Shown: positions 50,403 through 64,000, counted from the stretch's first letter. The stretch: DNA of 64,000 bases from Mycoplasma sp. CAG:472 (GCA_000437315.1 FR899419.1:16156-80155), one strand, 5' to 3'. The notes: generated from the sequence alone by a model not told the origin. Program-made: numbers and translations.

Positions 50403-51542
50403 CTATTTCATTTTTCTATTAAAGTCCTTTATTTCATCTTCATTATCAAGATTGCTATCTAAAAGTTCCTTGAATAATTTCTTTTGGGATAAAGTAAGTT
50501 TTGTAGGAATAATAATATTTACTACAACATACATATTACCGCGCATAATTGAATTTGGACTTTTTAAACCTTTTCCTTTAAGTTTTAACTTTGTATAATT
50601 TTGAGTTCCTGGTTTTATTTCAAGAATAACATTACCAGTAAGTGTTGGTATTTCTTTTTCACAACCTAAAGTCGCCTCGGCAACATTAATTGGAAGTTCA
50701 AGATAAATATCATTTCCTTGTCTTTCAAAAAGAGGATGCTCTTTTATTTCAAAATCTACATAAAGATCACCATTTTCACCATTTGAAGAGGCATTACCTT
50801 TACCTGCAAGTCTTAATTCATGACCTGAATCAACGCCTTCGGGAACTTTAATTTTAATAGATTTTTTTTCATTTACAATACCCATTCCTTTACAGTCTGA
50901 ACAAATATTTTGATAAGTAACACCTTTCCCCATACAATCAGGACATACTTTTTGGGTTTGCATTACTCCAAATATAGAACGAACTTGCTCTAAGACTACT
51001 CCACGACCACCACATTTTGAACATGTTTTTTCATTAAAGCCACCTTTACCATCACAGGTTTTACAAGAACTTTTTAAATTAACTTCAATAGTTTTTTCAC
51101 ATCCAAATGCAGCCTCTTCGAAAGTAAGAGGAATAGTTACTTTTATATCACTACCTCTTGAAGTTCTTTGCTTTCTTCCTCCACCAAATGAGGAAAATCC
51201 ACTTGTAAAGGATGAACCGAAGTCATCATCCTCTCCAAAAACATGGCGAAGAATATCTCCTAAATCGATATCACTGGCATTAAAATTAAATCCACCTTGA
51301 CCGCCAAAGTTACCTGTTCCATCAAAGGCAGCTGAACCATACTGATCATATGCTTTCCTTTTTTGTGGATCAGATAAAATTGCATAAGCCTCACCTATTT
51401 CTTTGAATTTTGCTTCATCACCAGTTTCTTTATTATCTGGATGGTACATCTTAGCAAGTTTTCTAAAGGCTCTTTTAATTTCTTCGTCAGTGGCTGTTTT
51501 TGAAACACCTAAAAGTTCATAATAATCTTTTTTACTATTCAT
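50403..51542 (-). CDS. dnaJ: Chaperone DnaJ
   Basis: J-domain with HPD (KMYHPDNK), a G/F-rich linker, and four CxxCxGxG zinc motifs (CKTCDGKG, CSKCGGRG, CPDCMGKG, CSDCKGMG). Confidence 0.95.
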   Translation of the reverse strand: MNSKKDYYELLGVSKTATDEEIKRAFRKLAKMYHPDNKETGDEAKFKEIGEAYAILSDPQKRKAYDQYGSAAFDGTGNFGGQGGFNFNASDIDLGDILRHVFGEDDDFGSSFTSGFSSFGGGRKQRTSRGSDIKVTIPLTFEEAAFGCEKTIEVNLKSSCKTCDGKGGFNEKTCSKCGGRGVVLEQVRSIFGVMQTQKVCPDCMGKGVTYQNICSDCKGMGIVNEKKSIKIKVPEGVDSGHELRLAGKGNASSNGENGDLYVDFEIKEHPLFERQGNDIYLELPINVAEATLGCEKEIPTLTGNVILEIKPGTQNYTKLKLKGKGLKSPNSIMRGNMYVVVNIIIPTKLTLSQKKLFKELLDSNLDNEDEIKDFNRKMK

Positions 51543-53298
51543 AAAGACTTTCTAACTCCTTTCTTTTTTCATCAAAGAATTTAAATACTTCATCATAAAG
51601 TGATGGACTTTGTATATCTACGCCCGCTACTTTTAAACTTTTAACTGGATCTAATGTAGAACCAAGTTTTAAAAATTTAATATAGTTTTCTAAAGCTCCA
51701 TCTTTCTTATTTATAATATCATTTGCTATTTTAAGTGCAGCAGCATAACCTGTAGCATATTGATAAACATAGAAATTATAATAAAAATGTGGAATTCTAT
51801 AACATTCGTATTTAATATCTTCATCAACTTCAACATTTGGTCCAAAATATAATTTATTTAAATCTAAATATTCTTTTTGTACTAATTCTTTAGTAAGAAC
51901 TGTTCCATTCATTTCTTTGTTATGAAGATTATCTTCGAAATGAGCAAACATAGTTTGTCTAATCATTGTTGCTTTAAATCTTTGTAATATACTATCTAAT
52001 ATATATTTTTTCTCCTCAATATTATCTGTATGATTTAACATATAATTTGTAAGAATTATTTCATTTACTTGACTTGCAACCTCCGCTACAAAAATAGAAT
52101 AATTATAGTCTTCATAAGTATTAAAGTTTTGAGCATAGTAATAATGCATTGCATGGCCTAGTTCATGAATAAGAGTTGATACATCATCAAGTTTTCCCTC
52201 ATAATTTATAACTATATAAGGATGAGCAAGATATGCACATGTACAGTATCCACCATCTCTTTTATTTTTTTTAGGATATACATCAATCCAATTATCAGAA
52301 AATGCTTTTTTAATTACCTCTACATAAGAATTTCCCATTACCTCTAAAGAAGATATTACAAGTTTTTTTGCTTCATCATATGTATATTTTTTATCAAAAT
52401 CTTTTGTAATATTTGCATAAGTATCATATAAATGAAGTTTATCTAAACCTAATACTTTCTTTTTTAAATCATAATATTTATAAAATTTAGGTAAATTATT
52501 TTTAATACCATTTATTAAATTATCATAAATATCATTTTTAATATCATTTGAATATAAACTCAAACTTCTTGCAGAAGTAAATCCTCTTAACTTAGCAACC
52601 TTATTATTACTCATTACTTTTGTTGTATATATAGTATTAAAGGTATTTTCATAATGTTTAATTTCTTTATAAAGCTTTAAAAATGCCTCTTTTCGAACAT
52701 TTTGATTATTACTTCGAATATAAGTACTAAAGTTAGATATTGTTAAAGGTACGATTTTACCTTCTTCATTTGTAATAGTGCCAAAGTCCATATCCGTTGT
52801 AAGAAGCATTTCACTTGCATCCTCACTTTTAGAGTATACAGATGTTAAAAGTGTAATAATTTTTTCTTCTTCTTTAGACTTAATATATTTTTTAGCTCTA
52901 TAAATACTCTTTAAATTATTTTCATATTCCTTTAACTTTGGAAATTTTTTTATATATTCTTTAACAAATTTAAAATCTTTTTCAAGTAATTCTGGAACAA
53001 CATAACTTTCTTTTTCTGATAATTCATTTAAGAAATTAAGTACATTACCTAACATTTCATTATAATTTTCATTTGTTAAATCTAAATCATTATTAATATG
53101 AGCATATAGATAAAGCCTTTCAAGTCTTTTTGAAATTTCATTATCATACTCTAAATATTCATATAACATTTCTGGATTAGATAATATTTTACCTTCATAA
53201 TTAGAAATATTTTTAGCATATTTTTTTAAGGAAATAAGTTCCTTTTTAGCATCTTCATCACTTTTAAATAAAGCACTTAAATCAATTTTTTCTTTCAT
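51535..53298 (-). CDS. pepF: Oligoendopeptidase F (M3B family)
   Basis: HELGHAMH zinc motif with the downstream E (FVAEVASQVNE). Length 587 aa. Confidence 0.85.
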   Translation of the reverse strand: MKEKIDLSALFKSDEDAKKELISLKKYAKNISNYEGKILSNPEMLYEYLEYDNEISKRLERLYLYAHINNDLDLTNENYNEMLGNVLNFLNELSEKESYVVPELLEKDFKFVKEYIKKFPKLKEYENNLKSIYRAKKYIKSKEEEKIITLLTSVYSKSEDASEMLLTTDMDFGTITNEEGKIVPLTISNFSTYIRSNNQNVRKEAFLKLYKEIKHYENTFNTIYTTKVMSNNKVAKLRGFTSARSLSLYSNDIKNDIYDNLINGIKNNLPKFYKYYDLKKKVLGLDKLHLYDTYANITKDFDKKYTYDEAKKLVISSLEVMGNSYVEVIKKAFSDNWIDVYPKKNKRDGGYCTCAYLAHPYIVINYEGKLDDVSTLIHELGHAMHYYYAQNFNTYEDYNYSIFVAEVASQVNEIILTNYMLNHTDNIEEKKYILDSILQRFKATMIRQTMFAHFEDNLHNKEMNGTVLTKELVQKEYLDLNKLYFGPNVEVDEDIKYECYRIPHFYYNFYVYQYATGYAAALKIANDIINKKDGALENYIKFLKLGSTLDPVKSLKVAGVDIQSPSLYDEVFKFFDEKRKELESLYE

Positions 53299-53313
53299 AT
53301 TTTATAACCAAAT

Positions 53314-53339
53314 ATTAGGTCCTAGAAATAGGACCTAAT
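53314..53339 (-). promoter_or_regulatory. Strong intercistronic hairpin between dnaK and pepF
   Basis: ATTAGGTCCTA-TTTC-TAGGACCTAAT: 11-bp perfect stem, unusually GC-containing for this genome, with only a weak U-tract. Confidence 0.55.
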
Positions 53340-53356
53340 ACTCTACCTTTCTTTTA

Positions 53357-55174
53357 TTATTTTTCTTTATATTCAGCTTCTTGGGCATCGTCTGATGAAT
53401 CATTTGAACTAGTTGTTTCAGTATTTTCAGCATTTGATTTATTTGCCTCATATACTTTACCAGCAAGTTCCATAGCCTTTTTATTTAGACTTTCAGTCTT
53501 AGCTTTAATATCTTCGATGTCATTTCCCTTAAGAGATTCCTCAAGGTCTTTAATTAATTTTTCAGCTTCTTCTTTATCTTTAGGATCAACTTTATCTTTT
53601 AAGTCCTCTAAAGCACGATTTGTTGCAAGAATCATTGAATCTGCTTCATTTCTAGCTTCACTTTCAGCCTTTTTCTTTTCATCAGCTTCTTTATTAGCTT
53701 CAGCCTCTTTCATCATTTTATCAATTTCTTCATCAGAAAGATTTGTTGAAGATGTAATTGTAATTGATTGTTCTTTATTAGTTCCAAGATCTTTAGCAGT
53801 AACGTTTACTATACCATTAGCATCAATATCAAATTTTACTTCAATTTGTGGAACTCCTCTTCTTGCTGGAGGTATATTAGTAAGTTGGAAGTTTCCTAAA
53901 GTTTTATTATCTGATGCCATTGGTCTTTCACCTTGAAGTACGTGAATATCAACAGCAGGTTGGTTATCTGCAGCAGTTGAGAATACTTGACTCTTACTTG
54001 TTGGAATAGTTGTATTTCTAGGAATAAGTACAGTCATTACGTTTCCTAAAGTTTCAATACCAAGTGATAGTGGTGTAACATCAAGAAGTACTACATCATT
54101 TACTTCACCAGTAAGTACGCCACCTTGAATAGCAGCACCCATTGCTACAACTTCATCAGGGTTTACACTCTTATTTGGTTCTTGTCCAAGTTCTTTTTTA
54201 ACAAGTTCTTGAATATAAGGTATTCTAGATGATCCTCCAACAAGGATTACTTTATTAATATCTTTTGCAGTAAGTCCAGCATCTTTTAAAGCTTTTCTAA
54301 CTGGTTCAAGTGTAGAATCAAATAAATCTTTATTTAAATCTTCGAATTTTGCTTTTGATAAAGTAATGTCCATATGAAGTGGTTCTTTGTTTTCATTTTG
54401 AGTTATAAATGGAAGTGAAATTTGTGTTGTAGTCATAGATGATAAATCTTTTTTAGCTTTTTCAGCAGCATCTTTAACTCTTTGCATTGCCATAGCATCT
54501 TTTGATAAATCAATACCATGCTCTTTTTTGAATTCTGATACTAAATAATTAGCAACTCTTTCATCAAAGTCATCTCCACCTAAATGGTTATTACCTGCAG
54601 TAGACTTAACTTCGAAAACACCATCACCAAGTTCAAGAATTGAAACATCGAATGTTCCTCCACCTAAGTCATATACTAAAATTGTTTGAAGTACATCTTG
54701 TTTATCAAGGCCATAAGCAAGTGCTGCAGCTGTTGGTTCATTGATAATTCTTTCAACATCAAGACCTGCTATTTTACCAGCATTTTTAGTTGCTTGTCTT
54801 TGTGCATCATTAAAGTATGCTGGAACTGTAATAACAGCTTTAGTTACTTTATCTCCTAAATAACTTTCAGCATCTTTTTTTAATTTAGAAAGAATCTTTG
54901 CACTGATTTCCTCTGGTGTATACATTCTTCCATTAGCCTCAACTTTTTCATTTGTTCCCATTTTTCTTTTAATTGAGGAAATTGTATTTTTAACATTTGT
55001 TACTGCTTGTCTTTTTGCAGTTTCTCCAACTAGTTCATCGTCACCTTTAAAAGCAACTACTGAAGGAGTTGTACGGTTTCCTTCGGCATTAGGAATAACT
55101 TTTGCTTCCCCACCTTCTAGTACCGCTACACAACTATTTGTTGTACCTAAATCTATACCAATAATTTTACTCAT
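53357..55174 (-). CDS. dnaK: Chaperone DnaK (Hsp70)
   Basis: [34 protein letters not shown]. Length 605 aa. Confidence 0.97.
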
Positions 55175-55194
55175 AATTTATCATTCCTTTCTTT

Positions 55195-55497
55195 TTATCG
55201 AGTAATTTTATTTTCATTATCTAAATTTGAATTAATTTCATTAACAATTTTAACTATTTCATCATTAATAATAATTTGTTCCTCACTAGATAAATTGCTT
55301 AAAATTTGATTATAATTACTAGAAAACTCTTCATGACTAATAAGTCCTCTAGTAACTTTTAAAAGTTCCATTAATGAATCAAAATATGCTCTATCAAGTT
55401 TCTCTGATGTAAGTCTAGAATGAATATCAATACTTTCTAAATGATACTCACCAAAACTATTAAAAATTAGTGACAAAGCTAGAAAATTATCATTCAT
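55195..55497 (-). CDS. Hypothetical 100-aa protein between grpE and dnaK
   Basis: ORF overlaps the grpE stop by 8 nt. No motif recognised. Confidence 0.4.
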   Translation of the reverse strand: MNDNFLALSLIFNSFGEYHLESIDIHSRLTSEKLDRAYFDSLMELLKVTRGLISHEEFSSNYNQILSNLSSEEQIIINDEIVKIVNEINSNLDNENKITR

Positions 55498-56056
55498 TAA
55501 CTTTTACCATAGCTACTCTTATAACTTTATCATTATAAGTATAGCCTTTTTGCATTACTTCCACAACTACGCCTTCCTCTTCTTCCATAATACTGGTAGT
55601 CATAATTGCTTCCATAGTTTTTGGATCAAACTGTTTACCCATTGCTTCAATCTCTTTAACACCAATTGCATTTAAAGTAGATAAAAGTGATGTATATATC
55701 ATTTTAAATCCAGATAAGAATTTTGAAAGCTCATCAGTTAAGTTATCATCATCAAGAGATATTGCTCTTTCAAAATTATCAATGATAGGTAAAATCTCTT
55801 TAATAAGTTTTTCACCATCATATTTATAAATATTAGCTTTTTCTTCATTAAAGCGTCTATTCATATTTTGCATTTCAGCATTTAATCTTAATATTTTATC
55901 TGAAAGTGCATTTTTTTCTTCAATTAACTTCTTGTTTTCTTCAGCAAATTTTTTGATTTCTTCCATACATTTTTCATGATGATTATTTTTTTTATCTTTC
56001 TTAATTTCTTTTTCATTTACTGAAACTTTTTCTTCTTTTTTAATATCTTCTTTCAA
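55490..56056 (-). CDS. grpE: Nucleotide exchange factor GrpE
   Basis: Long N-terminal helix, ILPIIDNFERA motif, and a C-terminal beta domain (GYTYNDKVIRVAMVKV). Confidence 0.9.
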   Translation of the reverse strand: MKEDIKKEEKVSVNEKEIKKDKKNNHHEKCMEEIKKFAEENKKLIEEKNALSDKILRLNAEMQNMNRRFNEEKANIYKYDGEKLIKEILPIIDNFERAISLDDDNLTDELSKFLSGFKMIYTSLLSTLNAIGVKEIEAMGKQFDPKTMEAIMTTSIMEEEEGVVVEVMQKGYTYNDKVIRVAMVKVNE

Positions 56057-56064
56057 GTTATCAC

Positions 56065-57063
56065 CTACTTTTTCTTCATTTGTTCTAGGACATAATCAAG
56101 TAGTCCATATACTTTAGCATAATCCATTCTTTTTGGACCTATTATTGCAATAGAACCTTTTTCACCATTAATATCATAAGTCCTTTTTACAATAGTTGTA
56201 TTATCATCAATTTGCGATTCATCGCCTATATAAACCTTAATTTCATCACTACCATCAATACTTGTAACTTTCTTAATGAAGGATTCATCCTCAAGTTTAT
56301 ATGCAAGTTTTTTAATTGAATCAGGATTATCATATTCTGGTTGTTCTAATACTTTAGCCTTACCACTTACAGTAACATTTGCATTTTCATCAACAAAATC
56401 TGTAAAAGCATTATAAAATATATTATATACTTTTTCATAATTACTTATTTCCTGTGCAATAATTGGTTTTATTTCAAACTCCAAATGCTGTGAAACATCT
56501 TTAATTGGTGTTCCAATAAGCATCTTATTAATTATTTCACTAGTTTTAATAAGTTCTTTAACATTTGTACCATCCGGTAAAACAAATTTCTTATTTTCTA
56601 CAAGTCCTGTATTTGTACATACTAAAGCAACAATTTTATTTTCATCTATTGGAATAATACTTACTTGTTTAAGCAAATTATCCATGCTACTACTTCCCAA
56701 AACTATTGAAGCATAATTTGTTAAATCACTAATTATCTCCATACACTTAGTAATTGCATCAGATAATACTAAATCTTGATTTTTAACTACTCTCTGAAGT
56801 TTTAACATTTCGCTACCATTAAGTTTTTCAGGTTCCATCAAGTTTTCAACATAATAACGATAACCTTTTTCTGAAGGTATTCTTCCTGAGGATATATGAT
56901 TTTTTTCAATATAACCTAAATCCTCTAAAATAGCCATCTCATTTCTTATTGTAGCACTTGATAAATTAAACTTTTCACAAAGCGACTTACTTCCAACAGG
57001 TTTAACGGACTTTACATAAGTCTCTACTATTACTTTTAGTAACTGTTTTTGACGATTATCCAT
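56065..57063 (-). CDS. hrcA: Heat-inducible transcription repressor HrcA
   Basis: N-terminal wHTH (PVGSKSL..LSSATIRNEMAILEDLGYIEKNHISSGRIPSEKGYRYYV). Length 332 aa. Heads the grpE-dnaK operon. Confidence 0.9.
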   Translation of the reverse strand: MDNRQKQLLKVIVETYVKSVKPVGSKSLCEKFNLSSATIRNEMAILEDLGYIEKNHISSGRIPSEKGYRYYVENLMEPEKLNGSEMLKLQRVVKNQDLVLSDAITKCMEIISDLTNYASIVLGSSSMDNLLKQVSIIPIDENKIVALVCTNTGLVENKKFVLPDGTNVKELIKTSEIINKMLIGTPIKDVSQHLEFEIKPIIAQEISNYEKVYNIFYNAFTDFVDENANVTVSGKAKVLEQPEYDNPDSIKKLAYKLEDESFIKKVTSIDGSDEIKVYIGDESQIDDNTTIVKRTYDINGEKGSIAIIGPKRMDYAKVYGLLDYVLEQMKKK

Positions 57064-57073
57064 AATGTCCTTT

Positions 57074-57100
57074 CTAGCACTTCCTTAACCAAAATGCTAA
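57074..57100 (-). promoter_or_regulatory. CIRCE-like operator 1 (degenerate), just downstream of the -10
   Basis: Minus strand TTAGCATTT-TGGTTAAGG-AAGTGCTAG, against the consensus TTAGCACTC-N9-GAGTGCTAA. Confidence 0.6.
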
Positions 57101-57104
57101 CATT

Positions 57105-57133
57105 ATTATATTATGCAAATTAGCACTTGTCAA
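57105..57133 (-). promoter_or_regulatory. Consensus sigma-A promoter of the hrcA operon
   Basis: Minus strand TTGACA (57133-57128), exactly 17 nt, TATAAT (57110-57105). Confidence 0.75.
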
Positions 57134-57146
57134 TACCTTTTGCTAA
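57120..57146 (-). promoter_or_regulatory. CIRCE-like operator 2, overlapping the -35
   Basis: Plus strand TTAGCACTT-GTCAATACC-TTTTGCTAA (9-nt spacer). Confidence 0.55.
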
Positions 57147-57169
57147 TTTTTTTTATAAAAAAATTAATG

Positions 57170-58834
57170 TTAATTTCCTAACACTAATTTTTCTTCTTTA
57201 GATAAATATTTTTCTATTTCTATAGCACTTTTTTGTAAAAATTCTACAAAGTTATCAATACTAATACTTGCTTTAAATGTAACTTCTCCTTCATAAAAAT
57301 CAGTAAATTCTATTAAGGAATCTTTTAAAGTTTCTTTAAGTATAACTTTGTAATTACCATGAGCAATACTATTCCTAATGCCGTTAATTATCTTTTCATT
57401 TTTAAGTAGACTTGCATAAGTACTTACATAATTATTTACATTATTTAAAGTATTTTGAATATTTGCTAAATCAATATTATATCCATTAATATTCCCATTA
57501 ATTGTATTTATTTGACTAGTTATAGCATTTATACCTTTTTGATTACCAATCGAAGTAACTTTTGCTAAATTATTATTGCAACTAACTAAAGCATTATTTA
57601 ATTTATTTATATTATTTTTAATAGCATTTTCCTTTACACCTAAATCAGTAATATATCCATCATCTGTTTTTTCCACTTCTACATTAAACGAACTTGTATC
57701 TATAAGTGAATAATCAAAACCATCCAAATCTAAACTTTGATATTCATTTTTATTATGTAAAACATCATCATAACCATATGCAAATAAAGCATTAAACGAA
57801 GATATTAAACTTTGAGCTAAGTCATCAGTAGCTATATAAAGTTTACCATATTTTTTTATTATATCATCATGAACTTTTTCATAATTAGATGTTCCTAATT
57901 CTTTTATTGAATTAAGTAGTAATAAGTTATGTACACCTGAGGCAATCATGCTAAAGTTATCAAATTTATCTTTATTAAATAATTTATCAACTTCATAACC
58001 AACAATTTCAATAGCTCTTTCATATGGCGTATTTAAAGTTGTACTATTATATAGAAAACTTTCTAACATTTTCGTGTCTTCATTTTTAGTACTAACTTTA
58101 TTCCAAGTTACTTCATAATCATTTTTAACTTTCTTTTCGAAATCAATAAGTTCGCTTAAATTTAATGAATTTGAAAATGAAGAAACAGTTTCATTAAATC
58201 TATCAAATATAAATCCCTCAATTGGACTTCCATCTTTTCTTTTTATTGTAATATTATACTTATAATAAGATGCAATCATATTTTTATATTCATTTAATGA
58301 ATACCTTTCTTTATCCTTACCAATAATACTTTTAGAATAAACAAAACATCTTGTAAATGAGGAAGTATTATAATTTTGTAATGTTGAGGAAAAAGATGAT
58401 ATAACAAAATTTGTAAGCTTTGGTATTTGAATAACTATATCATTTCCATCAACTTTTAATATTATTCTATTATGAGCAAAATCTATCAAATATTCACCAT
58501 GACCTAATTTATTTCTAATCGTAGTAACTAAAGTATAACTATCTTTAAAAGTATAACCATTTATTTCATAACCACAATCTGTTTTATTAGCAATTATATT
58601 TACATTTTTTTCCATTAAGGAAATAGGAAGTAAAATGTTATTATTTTTATCAACCATTTTTTCTTTAATAGCTAAAAATATACTTGAAATATTTCCCACT
58701 ATAGCACCATTTAAATATTCTTTATTTGAAATATATTCACTATAGATAGGATTACCAAATATCATTCCCATTAAAAATAAATCATATGCATAATTTCCTG
58801 AAAAATATTTTATTATAGTTTCTTCTTTATTCAT
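57170..58834 (-). CDS. Protein with two HEPN-type RNxxxH motifs (554 aa)
   Basis: IRNKLGHGEY (R107-H112, nt 58516-58499) and IRNSIAHGNY (R487-H492, nt 57376-57359). I verified both against the DNA. An Asn-rich predicted coiled coil lies between them. Overlaps the upstream gene by 4 nt. Confidence 0.6.
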   Translation of the reverse strand: MNKEETIIKYFSGNYAYDLFLMGMIFGNPIYSEYISNKEYLNGAIVGNISSIFLAIKEKMVDKNNNILLPISLMEKNVNIIANKTDCGYEINGYTFKDSYTLVTTIRNKLGHGEYLIDFAHNRIILKVDGNDIVIQIPKLTNFVISSFSSTLQNYNTSSFTRCFVYSKSIIGKDKERYSLNEYKNMIASYYKYNITIKRKDGSPIEGFIFDRFNETVSSFSNSLNLSELIDFEKKVKNDYEVTWNKVSTKNEDTKMLESFLYNSTTLNTPYERAIEIVGYEVDKLFNKDKFDNFSMIASGVHNLLLLNSIKELGTSNYEKVHDDIIKKYGKLYIATDDLAQSLISSFNALFAYGYDDVLHNKNEYQSLDLDGFDYSLIDTSSFNVEVEKTDDGYITDLGVKENAIKNNINKLNNALVSCNNNLAKVTSIGNQKGINAITSQINTINGNINGYNIDLANIQNTLNNVNNYVSTYASLLKNEKIINGIRNSIAHGNYKVILKETLKDSLIEFTDFYEGEVTFKASISIDNFVEFLQKSAIEIEKYLSKEEKLVLGN

Positions 58835-59919
58835 TTTCTCACCATTATTAAAGGCACATACATTTCATCTTCTGTAAAACCTGCATGATTAGATTTAAAT
58901 ATATGTCCTCCTCTTTTATACTTAAATATTTTATCACTTTTTGCAAGAGCAATAAAGTCTCCAATAGAATCACAAAAATATTTATTTTCATTATTAAGAC
59001 CAAATAATTTAGATTCTATTACTTCATCTTTACTCATTAATTTAAAATATTCCGAAAAGTATTTATTAAATAATTTTTCAAATAAAGTTTTATCAGTTAC
59101 ATTAAATGCGCAGCATCTTCCCTCAAGCCAAACATTGCTAATAATTAAATCAAATAAATCTGGATAATCACTTAAATAAATGTATTCAGTATCTAAATGA
59201 CCATGATCTGCTGTAATAATTAATAAAGTATCTTTTATTTCATTTGCAAAACTTTCACATTTATTATTAATCATTTTTAAAATAGATAATACTTCTTTAC
59301 TGTTATTACCTTTTACATGTAACATGCTATCAGGATCCATATAATAAGCATAAATATAATTTTTTTCTTTTATATTTAAATTGGATTTTATCATAGATAG
59401 CATTTCATCAATATCTTTATATGTTTCTTCATATTTAATTGGAAATACTATTTTTGAATGATATTTACCATTTTCTAAAATTCTATCAGTAATCGTTTTA
59501 TAAGAAAAATATTTTTCTGCAATATTAAAGGGATATTCTTTATCACCATCTTTATATATATTTGTAAACATTGTTACAAAAGCATTTTCATTTTTATAGT
59601 ACATATCCCATCCTAAATAACCATGCGTGCAAGGATATTTTCCTGTCATAATCGAAGTTGTAGCACTAGTCGTTGTCGAAGGACAAGTCGAGATAACTTT
59701 TTTAACTATATTATTTACTAAAAATGTATTAGGTAGTTTTTCATTTATTAAGTTATAACCCATTCCATCAAATAAAATAACCACTACATTTTTAGGTTTA
59801 TAAGTATTTAATACTTCATCAATTTCCCCAAGTGAAGAAACTTCACTTTTTAAATCAAAATATTTTTCAATACTACCTGCTATATTAACAATATTATTTT
59901 TATAATCTGGATAAATCAT
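58831..59919 (-). CDS. Alkaline-phosphatase-superfamily enzyme (type I phosphodiesterase/nucleotide pyrophosphatase-like, 362 aa)
   Basis: VVVILFDGMGYN (metal Asp), CPSTTTSATTSIMTGKYPCTHGY (nucleophile Thr/Ser region), LIITADHGH. Confidence 0.7.
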   Translation of the reverse strand: MIYPDYKNNIVNIAGSIEKYFDLKSEVSSLGEIDEVLNTYKPKNVVVILFDGMGYNLINEKLPNTFLVNNIVKKVISTCPSTTTSATTSIMTGKYPCTHGYLGWDMYYKNENAFVTMFTNIYKDGDKEYPFNIAEKYFSYKTITDRILENGKYHSKIVFPIKYEETYKDIDEMLSMIKSNLNIKEKNYIYAYYMDPDSMLHVKGNNSKEVLSILKMINNKCESFANEIKDTLLIITADHGHLDTEYIYLSDYPDLFDLIISNVWLEGRCCAFNVTDKTLFEKLFNKYFSEYFKLMSKDEVIESKLFGLNNENKYFCDSIGDFIALAKSDKIFKYKRGGHIFKSNHAGFTEDEMYVPLIMVRK

Positions 59920-60347
59920 AAATACCTCGTATATTTAATTTTTTTAAATAATTTAATTAATTCAACAATAGAAAAAACAAGCATCATTAAAACTAAAAAA
60001 ATTGCGGCTATAGCTCCAGGCAATCCTATTTCGTTCCATTTTTTTAGTAAATCATAAAGCATATAAATTGATGAAACTAATATAAGTAACATAAAAGAAA
60101 ACATAAATTTATCATAAAGTTTTTTATAAATCATTTTACCAGACTCTTTATTAAATATTTTAATAACACTTGTTGCAATCATATAAGAACTTAGTAAAAA
60201 AACAATAGCATATAATAACTTTATAATTATAATGAATCCTGGTTCCTTAAATAAAGTTCTAAAAATAAAAATACTAGTAAAAACAAATGCCAATGATAAA
60301 ACTCCATAACAAATTGCATATATGATTTTTTCTTTCTTTTCCATCAT
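59916..60347 (-). CDS. Small 4-TM membrane protein, paralogue 3 of 3 (143 aa)
   Basis: Four hydrophobic helices. Same architecture as the two upstream genes. 4-nt overlaps on both sides. Confidence 0.6.
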   Translation of the reverse strand: MMEKKEKIIYAICYGVLSLAFVFTSIFIFRTLFKEPGFIIIIKLLYAIVFLLSSYMIATSVIKIFNKESGKMIYKKLYDKFMFSFMLLILVSSIYMLYDLLKKWNEIGLPGAIAAIFLVLMMLVFSIVELIKLFKKIKYTRYL

Positions 60348-60766
60348 AAAGTTCTCCCCTCTTTTATTGTTTCTATTACTTTTTTAACCATTATAAAACC
60401 TGGAATATAAAAGATAAAAGAAAATAATAGTAACCCGATATCTCCATGATAATCTTTAATAACTGTGTAATCAAAATATATTAAAGAGGAAAACCACATT
60501 AGCATAAACACTATATAAAAAATAATACTAAAAATTCTAAACATTTTCTTACCAGTTTCTTCATTATATAATTTAACAATTTGACAAGCATTAGAATATA
60601 TTCCAAACAACATAGCAATAGAAAATAATATCATAAACACTGAAATAGAATCGGTACTAGAAAAAATATTTTTTACAAAAAATTTCCAAAACAAAAAAAT
60701 TGCCAAAATTGCTACACCATAAACAATTGTATATATTATTCTAGTAACTTTATCAAACTTTTTCAT
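60344..60766 (-). CDS. Small 4-TM membrane protein, paralogue 2 of 3 (140 aa)
   Basis: Shares ...IIFYIVFMLMWFSSLIYFDYTVIKDY... with paralogue 1 (LIIYLAFLIFWFGSLIYYDYSLINNW). Confidence 0.6.
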   Translation of the reverse strand: MKKFDKVTRIIYTIVYGVAILAIFLFWKFFVKNIFSSTDSISVFMILFSIAMLFGIYSNACQIVKLYNEETGKKMFRIFSIIFYIVFMLMWFSSLIYFDYTVIKDYHGDIGLLLFSFIFYIPGFIMVKKVIETIKEGRTL

Positions 60767-60770
60767 ACAT

Positions 60771-61226
60771 TCACCCCGCTCTTATTTTTCTATAAGTAGT
60801 ATAGCTCATAAATAGTCCTGGTAAATATAAAAATATAGTACAAAGAAGTTCTTTTAAACTTGAATTATTCCAATTATTTATTAATGAATAATCATAATAA
60901 ATTAAACTTCCAAACCAAAATATTAGAAATGCTAAATAAATTATTAAACTTATTACATTAAGCACTTTTTCATTCTTTTTAATGCATAAATCTAATGCTA
61001 CCAAAACAAAAACTATTGATGAAAATATAAAAATACCTCCGATAAGAATTAATAGTAATTTAATGATTCCATTATAACTGTTCATACGATTAAACATTAA
61101 TTTACTGCATATTACCATTAAAAAACACATAAAAATTGAAATAGCAATTAAAATTTTTTTCATAGTTTTATCTTTAGACAAAGACTTATCTAATCTTTTC
61201 ATCAATTTTTCTAATTTCTCTTCCAT
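60771..61226 (-). CDS. Small 4-TM membrane protein, paralogue 1 of 3 (151 aa)
   Basis: Start moved to MEEKLEKL (ATG 61224-61226) behind GGTAGGAGG; the track start at 61241 reads through the RBS. Confidence 0.6.
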   Translation of the reverse strand: MEEKLEKLMKRLDKSLSKDKTMKKILIAISIFMCFLMVICSKLMFNRMNSYNGIIKLLLILIGGIFIFSSIVFVLVALDLCIKKNEKVLNVISLIIYLAFLIFWFGSLIYYDYSLINNWNNSSLKELLCTIFLYLPGLFMSYTTYRKIRAG

Positions 61227-61475
61227 GAAACCTCCTACCATAATTTAATAATAGCACATAAAGAAAAATGAAACAATAAAAAAATCAACATATTTCTATG
61301 CTAATTTTATATTTTTATAACTAACTCATGTCTTATTTTGACATGTTTTGTCGAAGTAGTTGCAATGCAAAAATTTACATGTATAATACTTAATCGAACG
61401 TGCAGGAACTGGCGTTGCCACCAATTTTCAGGGGGTTTGAAATAAATCAAAATTTCTGGAAGGAGGATGATGCTT

Positions 61476-61625
61476 ATGTCTAAAGATAAGATAATTAAAT
61501 TCGAGTTTTTATGCATACTATTTCTGATTTGTTTTTACAACCTAGATAAAATAGAAAACGCCGTCCATGTTCTAGTAAAACTATTTAGACTTTTAAAAGA
61601 GTTTATTTTAGCTTTACTAGCATAG
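61476..61625 (+). CDS. Candidate 49-aa hydrophobic peptide (not in the track)
   Basis: GGAAGGAGG ends 9 nt before the ATG at 61476. Translation: MSKDKIIKFEFLCILFLICFYNLDKIENAVHVLVKLFRLLKEFILALLA*. An extended -10 (TGTATAAT) lies at ~61381-61388. The hairpin at 61654-61674 lies downstream. Confidence 0.3.
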   Translation: MSKDKIIKFEFLCILFLICFYNLDKIENAVHVLVKLFRLLKEFILALLA

Positions 61626-61653
61626 ATAGCGTTATCTAATTTCATTATTAGGC

Positions 61654-61674
61654 AACGTGAACTTCCTTCACGTT
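61654..61674. terminator. Hairpin between the convergent P-type ATPase gene and the small plus-strand ORF
   Basis: AACGTGAA-CTTCC-TTCACGTT, an 8-bp perfect stem. The flanking T/A runs are weak on both strands. Confidence 0.4.
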
Positions 61675-61720
61675 CACCTATTTATAATATAACATTAATC
61701 TATATATTTATGCAAGGGGT

Positions 61721-64000
61721 TTAGATATTATTTGTTTTTCTTAATATATAATTTGAAAGTGATTTAAGTTTATCAAAAATATACATACTACAAATAAATA
61801 AAACTATAAATACTAAAATAGTGTCTTTATTAATATTACTTATATTGAAAAATGCATATTGGTAAAGCGCACAATATTCAAATGCTAAGAATAATATACA
61901 CATCATTACTCCCCTTAAAAGATTATATGGTTTACAAATATAATTTAAGAATATAAATCCTGTTATAGCGGTTAAAAATACTGTAAGAGTCGAACATAAT
62001 TCTTGTGAAAGACCAAAATTAATTTGGAACAACTTAATAATTACTACATTAAATACTACAGTTAAAGCACTAGGTAAAGCCTTTAAGAATACTTTCAAAA
62101 GAAAATTTCCTTTTACAAGTTCATGGTTTGGTTCAAGTGCTAAAATAAATGATGGAACACCTATTGTAAAAAATGTTATTAAAGTTAAATGAATTGGAAT
62201 AAAGAAATATTCTGTATTTAGGAAAATACAAGCAATAATTAAAATTATTGTAAATATTGTTTTACTAAGGAGAAGTGATGAACTTCTTTCTATATTATTA
62301 ATACTTCTTCTTCCCTCCTTTAAAATAAGAGGTAAATTATCAATTTTTGAATCAAGAAGTACAAACTGACTTACATTTTTGGCAGCATCTGCTCCACTTG
62401 CCATTGCAATAGAACAATCACTTTCTTTTAAAGCAAGGCAATCGTTTACTCCATCACCAGTCATACCTACAAAATGTCCTTTATTCTTAAGGGCAATAAC
62501 TATTTTTTTCTTTTGGTCTGGTTTAACTCTACCTAAAATATTAAAACTTTCAATAATATCAGGTATTTCTTCATCACTAACCTGTGACATATCTACACTT
62601 CTTATATCACTAATTCCTGCCCTACTAGCAATTTTAGAAACAGTTACTGGATTATCTCCACTTATGATTTTAATATCAATACCTTGCTCTTTAAAATAAT
62701 TTAAAGTAACATCAGCATTTTCTTTGATTTTATCTTGAATTAAAATTAAAGCAATAGGTTTTATATCTTTTATATTTTTTAAACTTTCTCCTTTTGCAAG
62801 AAGTAATACTCTATAATCTTCTTGATAAGATGAAAGATTTTTTATTTTACCTTTATATAAATTTTCAGGACTACCTAAAAAGTATACATCACTTTCAAAT
62901 TTAACCGCTGAATACTTACGTACACTTGAAAATGATAATGTTTCTAAAAAAGCATCCTTATATTTAATATCACTTACAAAACTTTCTACTGCTTTAAAAG
63001 TTGGTGATGGATCAGAAAGTGCATTTACATAAGATGCTAAAATTTCTTTAATATCTTTTTCACTTTCTTTTTTAAGAGGAATAATTTTTTTTACTTCCAT
63101 AAATCCTTCGGTAATTGTACCAGTTTTATCTAAACATAAAGTATCTACTCTAGCAAGATTTTCAATAGAATATAAATCTTGAACTAAAACATTATATTTT
63201 TTAAGTCTAATAACACTTACTGCCATTGCCGATGATGTTAAAAGTACAAGCCCTTCGGGTATCATACCTATTAAAGCACTAACCATACTCATAAGGGAAT
63301 CTGGAATGCTGTTAGTAATACCCATTTGATTTATAAAAAATAATATACCAATTGGAACAAGTAAAACACTTAGTATTTTTAGCATCTTTTCAAATGAATT
63401 ATAAATAACTGAATTAGTCTTTTTTATATATTTTGTTTCACTAGTAATTTTAGAAATATAATTATCTTTTCCTATATGAATTACCTTAGCATAAACATTA
63501 CCACTTATAATAAATGAACCACTTGTTAAATCATCACCCTTTTCTTTAGTAATAATTTTTTCTTCACCAGTTATAAAAGCTTCATTTACTTCACAAGTTC
63601 CAGATAATATTACAGCATCAGTTACAACCTGGTTTCCTATTTCATAATTACATACATCATCTAAAACAAGCTGTTCTCTAGTAAGCTCTATAGTTTCACC
63701 ATCACGAATTACTTTAATTTTGCTATCGGCAATAACACTTAATTTATCAATTGTTTTTTTAGCAAGAATTTCTTCGACTATACTTATTATAGTATTTGTA
63801 AAAATGACATTAACAAAAAGACAATTTTTTAATGCATATAAAAATTTTCCAGATACTATTCCACTTATTAAAACCATTAAACCTAAAGCAATATTTAAAA
63901 AGTTAAAATAAGTTAAAGCATTTGTCTTAATAATTTCTTTAATAGTTTTAGTTTTTGGTTCATCAACATAATTTATTAAACCTTTTTGTTTTCTTTCTTC
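61721..64000 (-). CDS. Cation-transporting P-type ATPase (N-terminus runs off the window end)
   Basis: DKTGTITEG phosphorylation motif, ISGDNPVTV, MTGDGVNDCLALKESD hinge. The frame stays open upstream of the track Met at 63877 through 64000 (EERKQKGLINYVDEPKTKTIKEII...). Confidence 0.9.
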   Translation of the reverse strand, partial: EERKQKGLINYVDEPKTKTIKEIIKTNALTYFNFLNIALGLMVLISGIVSGKFLYALKNCLFVNVIFTNTIISIVEEILAKKTIDKLSVIADSKIKVIRDGETIELTREQLVLDDVCNYEIGNQVVTDAVILSGTCEVNEAFITGEEKIITKEKGDDLTSGSFIISGNVYAKVIHIGKDNYISKITSETKYIKKTNSVIYNSFEKMLKILSVLLVPIGILFFINQMGITNSIPDSLMSMVSALIGMIPEGLVLLTSSAMAVSVIRLKKYNVLVQDLYSIENLARVDTLCLDKTGTITEGFMEVKKIIPLKKESEKDIKEILASYVNALSDPSPTFKAVESFVSDIKYKDAFLETLSFSSVRKYSAVKFESDVYFLGSPENLYKGKIKNLSSYQEDYRVLLLAKGESLKNIKDIKPIALILIQDKIKENADVTLNYFKEQGIDIKIISGDNPVTVSKIASRAGISDIRSVDMSQVSDEEIPDIIESFNILGRVKPDQKKKIVIALKNKGHFVGMTGDGVNDCLALKESDCSIAMASGADAAKNVSQFVLLDSKIDNLPLILKEGRRSINNIERSSSLLLSKTIFTIILIIACIFLNTEYFFIPIHLTLITFFTIGVPSFILALEPNHELVKGNFLLKVFLKALPSALTVVFNVVIIKLFQINFGLSQELCSTLTVFLTAITGFIFLNYICKPYNLLRGVMMCILFLAFEYCALYQYAFFNISNINKDTILVFIVLFICSMYIFDKLKSLSNYILRKTNNI

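Follow-up and report, generated by a model that had tools for sequence, protein, structure and literature searches.

Do five tightly coupled genes make a conserved defense system? The question is raised by a 64,000-nucleotide (nt) stretch of DNA from Mycoplasma sp. CAG:472 (GCA_000437315.1 FR899419.1:16156-80155; 25% G+C), referred to below as the window, in which five minus-strand open reading frames (ORFs) run head to tail from 57170 to 61226. The original prediction saw in them a membrane module, a phosphodiesterase and a putative RNase that could together form an abortive-infection or signaling-nucleotide-linked defense system. We find that the five-gene arrangement is a feature of one small clade and not a conserved multi-component system. 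What stands out at this locus is the product of the last gene, here called H, a probable variant of the HEPN RNase; it belongs to an unnamed, lineage-restricted family that is wider than the window's clade. With moderate confidence we favor the reading of H as a conflict or toxin RNase, stand-alone and with two HEPN domains in a single chain, whose variable center serves as its sensor and which was locally captured into an operon with a phosphodiesterase (PDE) and transmembrane (TM) proteins. The five genes are as follows.

60771-61226, minus strand: TM1, a small membrane protein of 151 amino acids, the first gene of the operon, as called from the ORF
60344-60766, minus strand: TM2, a 140-amino-acid paralogue with four TM segments (4-TM), beginning 4 nt past the TM1 stop
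59916-60347, minus strand: TM3, a 143-amino-acid 4-TM paralogue, overlapping TM2 by 4 nt
58831-59919, minus strand: PDE, a 362-amino-acid phosphodiesterase of the nucleotide pyrophosphatase/phosphodiesterase (NPP) type in the alkaline-phosphatase superfamily, overlapping TM3 and H by 4 nt each
57170-58834, minus strand: H, a 554-amino-acid protein with two RNxxxH motifs, from an unnamed lineage-restricted family

All ORFs and junctions were recovered as predicted, with a 4-nt gap at TM1/TM2 and 4-nt overlaps at TM2/TM3, TM3/PDE and PDE/H, so that the claimed coupling of the five genes stands. The operon is flanked by a P-type ATPase gene (61721-64000) and by hrcA-grpE-dnaK-pepF, with the hrcA-grpE-dnaK operon (51535-57063) abutting H.

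To see how far this arrangement extends, we scanned one genome per species with a single pattern, which gives a lower bound, and called and clustered the ORFs and mapped the neighborhoods within 8-kb flanks. The scan returned 59 H loci, almost all from metagenome-assembled genomes (MAGs) of uncultured gut Bacilli or 'Tenericutes'. PDE adjoins or lies near H in 7 of these 59 species loci, all close relatives, and is absent within 8 kb in 52. It is coupled to H in L001-L004, where the H proteins are 75-94% identical, and lies near H, with a lipoprotein gene between, in L006, L007 and L012 (H 38-40% identical). Elsewhere the neighbors of H encode RecG, PFOR, UvrC, PBP2, gpsA, DHFR, YebC, a signal peptidase and two-component proteins, the gene is usually set off on both sides by intergenic gaps of 50-500 nt, and its chromosomal position varies between genera. 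The other genes of the operon follow the same pattern. Other Bacilli MAGs encode PDE homologues at 45-54% identity as solitary genes in housekeeping surroundings, beside neighbors such as thrS, the CCA-adding enzyme, metK and a Cu-oxidase_4 protein and with neither TM genes nor H adjoining, and a profile search of 5.8 billion proteins returned 85 relatives of the TM family, every one an orthologue from the window's narrow clade. Because PDE is near H in so few loci and the TM family is found in this clade only, the five-gene order is one small clade's feature: the neighborhood conservation proposed as a check is confined to that clade, and the idea that the five genes act as one defense system does not hold, H and PDE being solitary elsewhere. 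The operon should therefore not enter defense-system catalogues as a conserved system.

Inside the clade the arrangement is steady. H sits at the same site in all four sister species, the operon is carried by all ten of the long conspecific metagenome contigs with identical HrcA, and the 4-nt overlaps are kept in the four related species and in the same ten contigs. These overlaps would be expected if the operon were a working multi-component defense or abortive-infection module, in which H would be the RNase effector, PDE a regulator or off-switch (for example by hydrolyzing a nucleotide signal or 2',3'-cyclic phosphate ends) and the 4-TM proteins a sensor, an anchor or a second effector. Such a module would also fit the single sharp peak of diversity that covers PDE and H (nonsynonymous diversity within the species, piN, of 0.025 and 0.013, respectively, against 0.0001-0.003 in the neighbors), the weak TM-family relative (E about 0.002) encoded 11 nt upstream of H in L005, a locus with no PDE, and the published finding that HEPN genes of the pEK499_p136 type occur in Pgl operons alongside the PglZ phosphatase (PMC3710099). 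PDE, the lipoprotein gene and H stay together in L006, L007 and L012 despite the low identity of H, although the order ATPase-PDE-H in these loci can be plain inherited synteny. We nevertheless consider a working module unlikely, given the separation of H from PDE in most species loci, the housekeeping surroundings of the solitary PDE homologues, and a TM family that is clade-confined, varies from one to three copies and is not hypervariable.

The search for known defense components points the same way. PADLOC found no defense model matching any of the five proteins, and no cyclase, CARF, SAVED or similar signaling part is present at the operon, and the proposed link to signaling nucleotides finds no support. 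Placement in a defense island or on a mobile element was not borne out either: the locus lies between the P-type ATPase gene and hrcA-grpE-dnaK, and it is present in 10/10 conspecific contigs. A PADLOC census of 146 H neighbors gave generic helicase and HTH models, DUF1848 in five, and mad3, mad8 and Csa3 in two each. No NTP_transf-type domain (as in the MNT antitoxin) occurs in the operon proteins or in recurrent H neighbors. The expected absence of a CRISPR array was confirmed in the 64-kb window and extends to the 59 related loci, the scan matches being two coding tandem repeats.

If the operon is not the conserved unit, what is H? A full HMMER scan of 1.84 billion representatives places it in a family, drawn almost entirely from uncultured gut Bacilli, of 203 clusters at 50% identity, of which 130 reach E 1e-10 or better; most members are of about 550 amino acids and are collinear end to end. 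Its features are listed below, with coordinates in the window.

58370-58834, minus strand: N-terminal HEPN-like module, residues 1-155, delimited from AlphaFold2 secondary structure and hhalign
58499-58516, minus strand: motif 1, IRNKLGHG, R107-N-K-L-G-H112, with R107 invariant
57659-58369, minus strand: central variable alpha/beta plus helical domain, residues 156-392, with the lowest conservation (0.32-0.34), the fastest-evolving part of H
57173-57658, minus strand: C-terminal HEPN-like module, residues 393-554, delimited from a sub-threshold PF18736 match and AlphaFold2 secondary structure
57359-57376, minus strand: motif 2, IRNSIAHG, R487-N-S-I-A-H492, with R487 invariant

The two R-N-x-x-x-H motifs noted in the original prediction are present, and they are strongly conserved across the family. 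Across 60 family representatives, at 18-46% identity to the query, neither R107 nor R487 varies, and N108, H112, G113, N488, H492 and G493 are at least 90% conserved; conservation over representatives this divergent makes the motifs far more than a chance occurrence. Conservation along H has its maxima at the two motifs (0.59, 0.66) and its minima in the central domain and a helical hairpin (0.31-0.34). The AlphaFold2 model of H is of high confidence (predicted local distance difference test, pLDDT, 90.1; predicted template modeling score, pTM, 0.88), as is the separately predicted N-terminal module (pLDDT 89.4). In the model, the N-terminal module consists of helices, a helix (99-111) that ends in R107-H112, a three-stranded meander and a helix (137-152), with K57/E58 conserved in the long helix before motif 1. 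The C-terminal module runs from an Asn-rich helical hairpin (393-472) through a helix (474-491) ending in R487-H492 to a three-stranded meander and a final helix (526-553). The description of everything between the motifs as a long Asn-rich helical region thus applies to the hairpin, while residues 156-392 form a mixed alpha/beta and helical domain.

The two modules are homologous to each other (hhalign probability 94.9%, E 4e-8 over 62 columns, covering the motif, the meander and the next helix), and both resemble HEPN domains in the layout of the motif. In HEPN domains, which are four-helix bundles, Rx4-6H closes core helix 3 and opens the link to helix 4; the residue after the Arg is polar (N, D or H), helix 2 contributes an acidic residue, and in Csx1 a beta-hairpin directly follows the motif (PMC3710099). 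Both modules of H contain Rx4-6H with a polar residue after the Arg (R107-N...H112 and R487-N...H492), and each motif closes a helix, with at least two long helices before it and a three-strand insert and a last helix after it, judged from AlphaFold2 secondary structure only. The helix-end position of the motif, the Asn that follows the Arg and E58 in the preceding helix all agree with the published description of HEPN domains (PMC3710099). Profile comparisons add a link to named families. The C-terminal module of the window's H matches PF18736 (pEK499_p136 HEPN) at E 8.4e-5 and 22.8 bits, below the 26.6-bit cut-off, over profile positions 82-147 of 152, and its RNxxxH falls in register. Through this module PF18736 is matched by 8 of 28 family members and PF18737 by 6 of 28. 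In L071, the listing for the conspecific H allele shows PF18736 without a mark. PDB sequence searches with H and its module profiles gave only coiled-coil or chance matches, such as Tip-alpha. From this combination, membership of H in the HEPN superfamily is probable.

How might such a protein work? We infer for H a HEPN fold, RNase activity, an intramolecular pairing of its two sites and a biological role that together suggest the following scheme. Two homologous HEPN-like modules, one at each end and set apart by the helical hairpin and the fast-evolving central domain, would pack together in one chain, so that the two Arg/His pairs would form one composite, metal-independent RNase site. The variable central domain would sense a trigger, and H, once triggered, would cut cellular or invader RNA and stop growth, in a toxin, abortive-infection or other conflict role. 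In the window's clade, this stand-alone protein would have been joined by local operon capture to a cytoplasmic NPP-type PDE and to a 4-TM protein that is specific to the clade and present in one to three copies. The central domain has no family match and is a candidate sensor or specificity domain. We also considered whether it might be a third, degenerate HEPN copy, and comparison revealed a relation to neither the N-terminal nor the C-terminal module.

The evolution of H bears directly on its role. Between the window and its sister locus L004, amino-acid identity is 99.8% for DnaK, 98.8% for HrcA and 97% for TM1, and falls to 90.6% for PDE and 78.3% for H; between the window and L006 it is 79% for the ATPase, 68% for PDE and 40% for H. 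Synonymous divergence (dS) between the window and L004 reaches 0.51 in H and lies at 0.13-0.15 in the flanks; omega, the ratio of nonsynonymous to synonymous divergence, is 0.2-0.3 for H and 0.01-0.1 for the flanks. Nonsynonymous divergence (dN) and dS both reach their maximum within H at residues 210-330, in the central domain. Within the species, nucleotide diversity has a single peak over PDE and the 5' half of H, centered on the PDE/H junction (0.033-0.045, against 0.004-0.017 in the flanks), and mean amino-acid identity among L064-L073 is 94.9% for PDE, 97.3% for H and 99-100% for the flanks; the TM genes are not variable within the species. The H family evolves about ten times faster than its neighbors, and the peak over PDE and H singles out this locus, in a widespread gut bacterium, as one under unusual selection. 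Raised divergence at both synonymous and nonsynonymous sites suggests that old alleles have been kept or exchanged, a pattern typical of conflict genes. Because of this fast evolution and deep allelic divergence, a conflict or toxin role is the best reading of H.

Several observations weigh against the conflict-type, double-HEPN reading of H, some concerning its fold and others its role. With respect to fold, a Foldseek search of the PDB returned no solved HEPN structure (best E 0.12 for the full model and 0.77 for the N-terminal module), on the window's H every Pfam HEPN model scores below its gathering threshold, and direct profile support for HEPN is almost lacking in the N-terminal module, where PF18737 and PF18735 are each matched by 1 of 28 members. 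With respect to role, omega stays well below 1, H has no PADLOC match, and no relatives of H were found in phage records, plasmid records or viral contigs, that is, no link to phages or mobile elements; its presence in 10/10 conspecific contigs, in a core context, fits a lineage-specific housekeeping RNase as well.

The observations on fold would be expected if the RNxxxH segments were not catalytic HEPN sites at all, the modules having some other helix-plus-beta-meander fold with a binding or structural role, so that H would not be an RNase. All HEPN profile matches lie under the Pfam cut-offs, and the three-stranded meander right after the motif is unusual for HEPN domains. We regard this explanation as the least probable of those weighed here, since it would have to account for an R-N-x-x-x-H-G signature that is invariant or nearly so in two homologous modules, for the placement of the motif where a helix ends, as HEPN domains have it, and for several independent members that match two HEPN families in register. 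Moreover, Foldseek and hidden Markov model (HMM) searches likewise miss links among true HEPN enzymes (PMC12165695, the Cas13an paper).

The observations on role lead to a different explanation, in which H would be a housekeeping enzyme of RNA processing or turnover, specific to a lineage of reduced-genome gut Bacilli, that sits in an ordinary mixed operon and has relaxed constraint on its non-catalytic parts. The constant site of H among conspecific contigs and sister species is what this explanation predicts, and core genes flank H everywhere; the omega of H indicates purifying selection, its ORF is intact in about 130 full-length clusters, and copies on mobile elements, phages or plasmids were not found. 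However, its dS exceeds that of the flanks three- to fourfold, which suggests old or exchanged alleles rather than relaxed constraint alone. H is also duplicated in tandem in four loci (L011, L033, L038, L039) and split in at least one, L049:7962-9366, where ORFs of 149 and 288 amino acids make up a probable pseudogene. Its chromosomal position differs among genera, and the family was detected in 59 species genomes only, a lower bound from one pattern. On balance we judge a housekeeping role distinctly unlikely and prefer a conflict or toxin role for H.

What, then, is the enzyme encoded next to H in this clade? The predicted signature of a type I phosphodiesterase/nucleotide pyrophosphatase is well supported: PDE is an NPP-type phosphodiesterase by its match to PF01663 (77.3 bits, cut-off 23; E 2.2e-21), and 28 homologues, the most distant at 41% identity, all keep the residues of the two-metal site and the Thr nucleophile (D51, T82/T83, D197, H201, D238, H239, H241, H345). 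The enzyme is probably active. Its nearest solved relatives are ENPP5, ENPP4 and ENPP1 (E 1e-6), and it shares their two-metal site and nucleophile; it differs from the NPP family in being small and, from the lack of any hydrophobic segment, signal peptide or TM segment, predicted to be cytoplasmic. The additional label 'PglZ-like' falls short, with a match of 23.4 bits against a cut-off of 25. The locus also departs from BREX and Pgl systems, which combine PglZ with a PglX methylase, a PglY/BrxC ATPase and further components, in that no PADLOC BREX or Pgl model matches the five proteins, whose neighbors are the P-type ATPase gene and hrcA-grpE-dnaK.

A broader and, in our view, very unlikely proposal would join PDE, the double-HEPN RNase and the 4-TM proteins into a self-contained immune module of a new kind. 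Its two enzymes would co-diversify under balancing selection, PDE would gate the RNase, for instance through removal of a nucleotide activator or the processing of RNA ends that carry a cyclic phosphate, and the H family would be a CRISPR-free relative of an ancestral compact Cas13 architecture in which a protein sensor replaces the guide RNA.

The membrane proteins TM1-TM3 are mutually paralogous by BLASTP (E 8e-13 and 7e-14), tblastn cross-hits and alignment, and a crude hydropathy count gives three to four TM segments per protein. They belong to no Pfam, PADLOC or NCBIfam family, and comparison with TM effectors of known families gave chance-level matches alone (PycTM E 0.024, S_4TM E 0.74). 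Three gene copies are present in the window and L004, two in L002 and the conspecific contig L071, and one in L003; TM3 is the copy missing from L002, L003 and L071. Small proteins upstream of distant PDE homologues were also compared and are not TM paralogues. The likely start of TM1 is the ATG at 61226, 4 nt past AGGAGG (61231-61236), while the mechanical ORF start is 61241. The 494-nt gap upstream holds, outside the operon, a plus-strand ORF for a hydrophobic peptide of 52 amino acids (61467-61625) and a hairpin (61327-61345). At the other end, hrcA has a perfect sigma-A promoter at 57133-57105, and no terminator-like site is seen between H and this promoter. The locus is itself a small spot of variation: L003 has two paralogous, family-less ORFs (304 and 494 amino acids) between H and hrcA (L003:6440-8845), and the conspecific contig L071 has a 522-amino-acid ORF between the ATPase and TM genes (L071:1186-2754).

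Beyond the window's clade, the neighborhoods of H homologues contain further associations. Directly upstream of H in five loci (L013:7265-8008, L027:7271-8008, L028:7268-8008, L011:7214-7957, L014:7251-7913) lies a gene for a protein of about 245 amino acids that has no Pfam match and carries a kinase-like glycine loop, GQGSQGICYL...VYKV; in three of the loci it overlaps H by 8-11 nt. Such a split pair of a kinase-like protein and a HEPN protein recalls Ire1 and RNase L. In L008, a reverse transcriptase (RVT_1 E 5e-22, YSDD motif; L008:6947-7924), possibly of the defense type, is encoded 73 nt upstream of H. In L022 (9662-12428), a gene of 417 amino acids overlaps H by 4 nt and is followed by one of 511 amino acids, a relative of which adjoins H in L053. 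In the distant loci L011, L014 (6740-7156), L015 and L031, H has an HSP20 gene one or two genes upstream, and in the window it abuts hrcA-grpE-dnaK; this may reflect chance or a link to heat shock. Finally, L029, L030, L035, L036, L048 and L054 share a conserved block composed of DUF1848, an HTH_3/DUF2975 membrane regulator, H, an S41 peptidase and a protein of about 1290 amino acids; the DUF1848 proteins of this block match the PADLOC model 'RTasDUF1848' (E 1.8e-32).

It is instructive to compare H with the systems that it most resembles. In CBASS and Pycsar a cyclase accompanies the effector, and the operon differs from both in having none and in the chance level of its TM matches. A closer likeness is to the abortive-infection (Abi) HEPN RNases AbiD/F, AbiU2, AbiV and AbiJ and to HepT, which, like H, are encoded on chromosomes, carry an RNxxxH site, are predicted to be metal-independent RNases, evolve fast and are presumed to work by arresting growth. 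Those proteins have one HEPN domain and dimerize, whereas H has two modules. HepT, moreover, has MNT as its antitoxin partner and H has none beside it, and the Abi enzymes are set apart by the absence at H of any PADLOC Abi match and of the abiF RNA motif (RF03085), which is not among the Rfam matches in 55000-64000, a region that has none.

In sequence, H is closest to the pEK499_p136 HEPN family, and in architecture to the compact Cas13an. The former likeness lies in the C-terminal module of H, which matches the C-terminal half of the PF18736 profile in 8 of 28 members, the window's H being below the gathering score; the known operons of this family with the PglZ phosphatase (PMC3710099) echo the adjacency of PDE and H. 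The pEK499_p136 proteins are small and single-domain, whereas H has 554 residues, two modules, a coiled hairpin and a central domain of 240 residues, and no Pgl or BREX genes accompany the H operon. Cas13an proteins are compact, at 429-577 amino acids, and are described together with non-CRISPR clusters that have intramolecular HEPN dimers (PMC12165695); the motifs of H are absent from the dimeric-HEPN cluster tables of that paper. H resembles Cas13 and Cas13an in carrying two RNxxxH motifs in one chain of similar size, and over about 30 residues the profile of its N-terminal module gives a local alignment of 18 bits with the region around the HEPN2 motif in Cas13an4 and Cas13an7; this likeness is at the motif level only and would not reach significance in a database search. 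It differs from Cas13 in having no CRISPR array, in the window or the 59 loci, no associated RNA family in Rfam and no sign of RNA guidance. H lacks the adjacent array that defines Cas13, and its resemblance to Cas13an is confined to the motif.

The layout of H is what makes the comparison worthwhile. Other HEPN proteins form their composite site by dimerizing, and Cas13 does so within one chain; to our knowledge, Cas13 is so far the main known case of a single-chain HEPN pseudo-dimer. The H family is abundant in common, uncultured human-gut Bacilli and may add a small RNase scaffold for study, and a compact, CRISPR-free family with the two-site layout of Cas13 bears on the origin and control of such enzymes.

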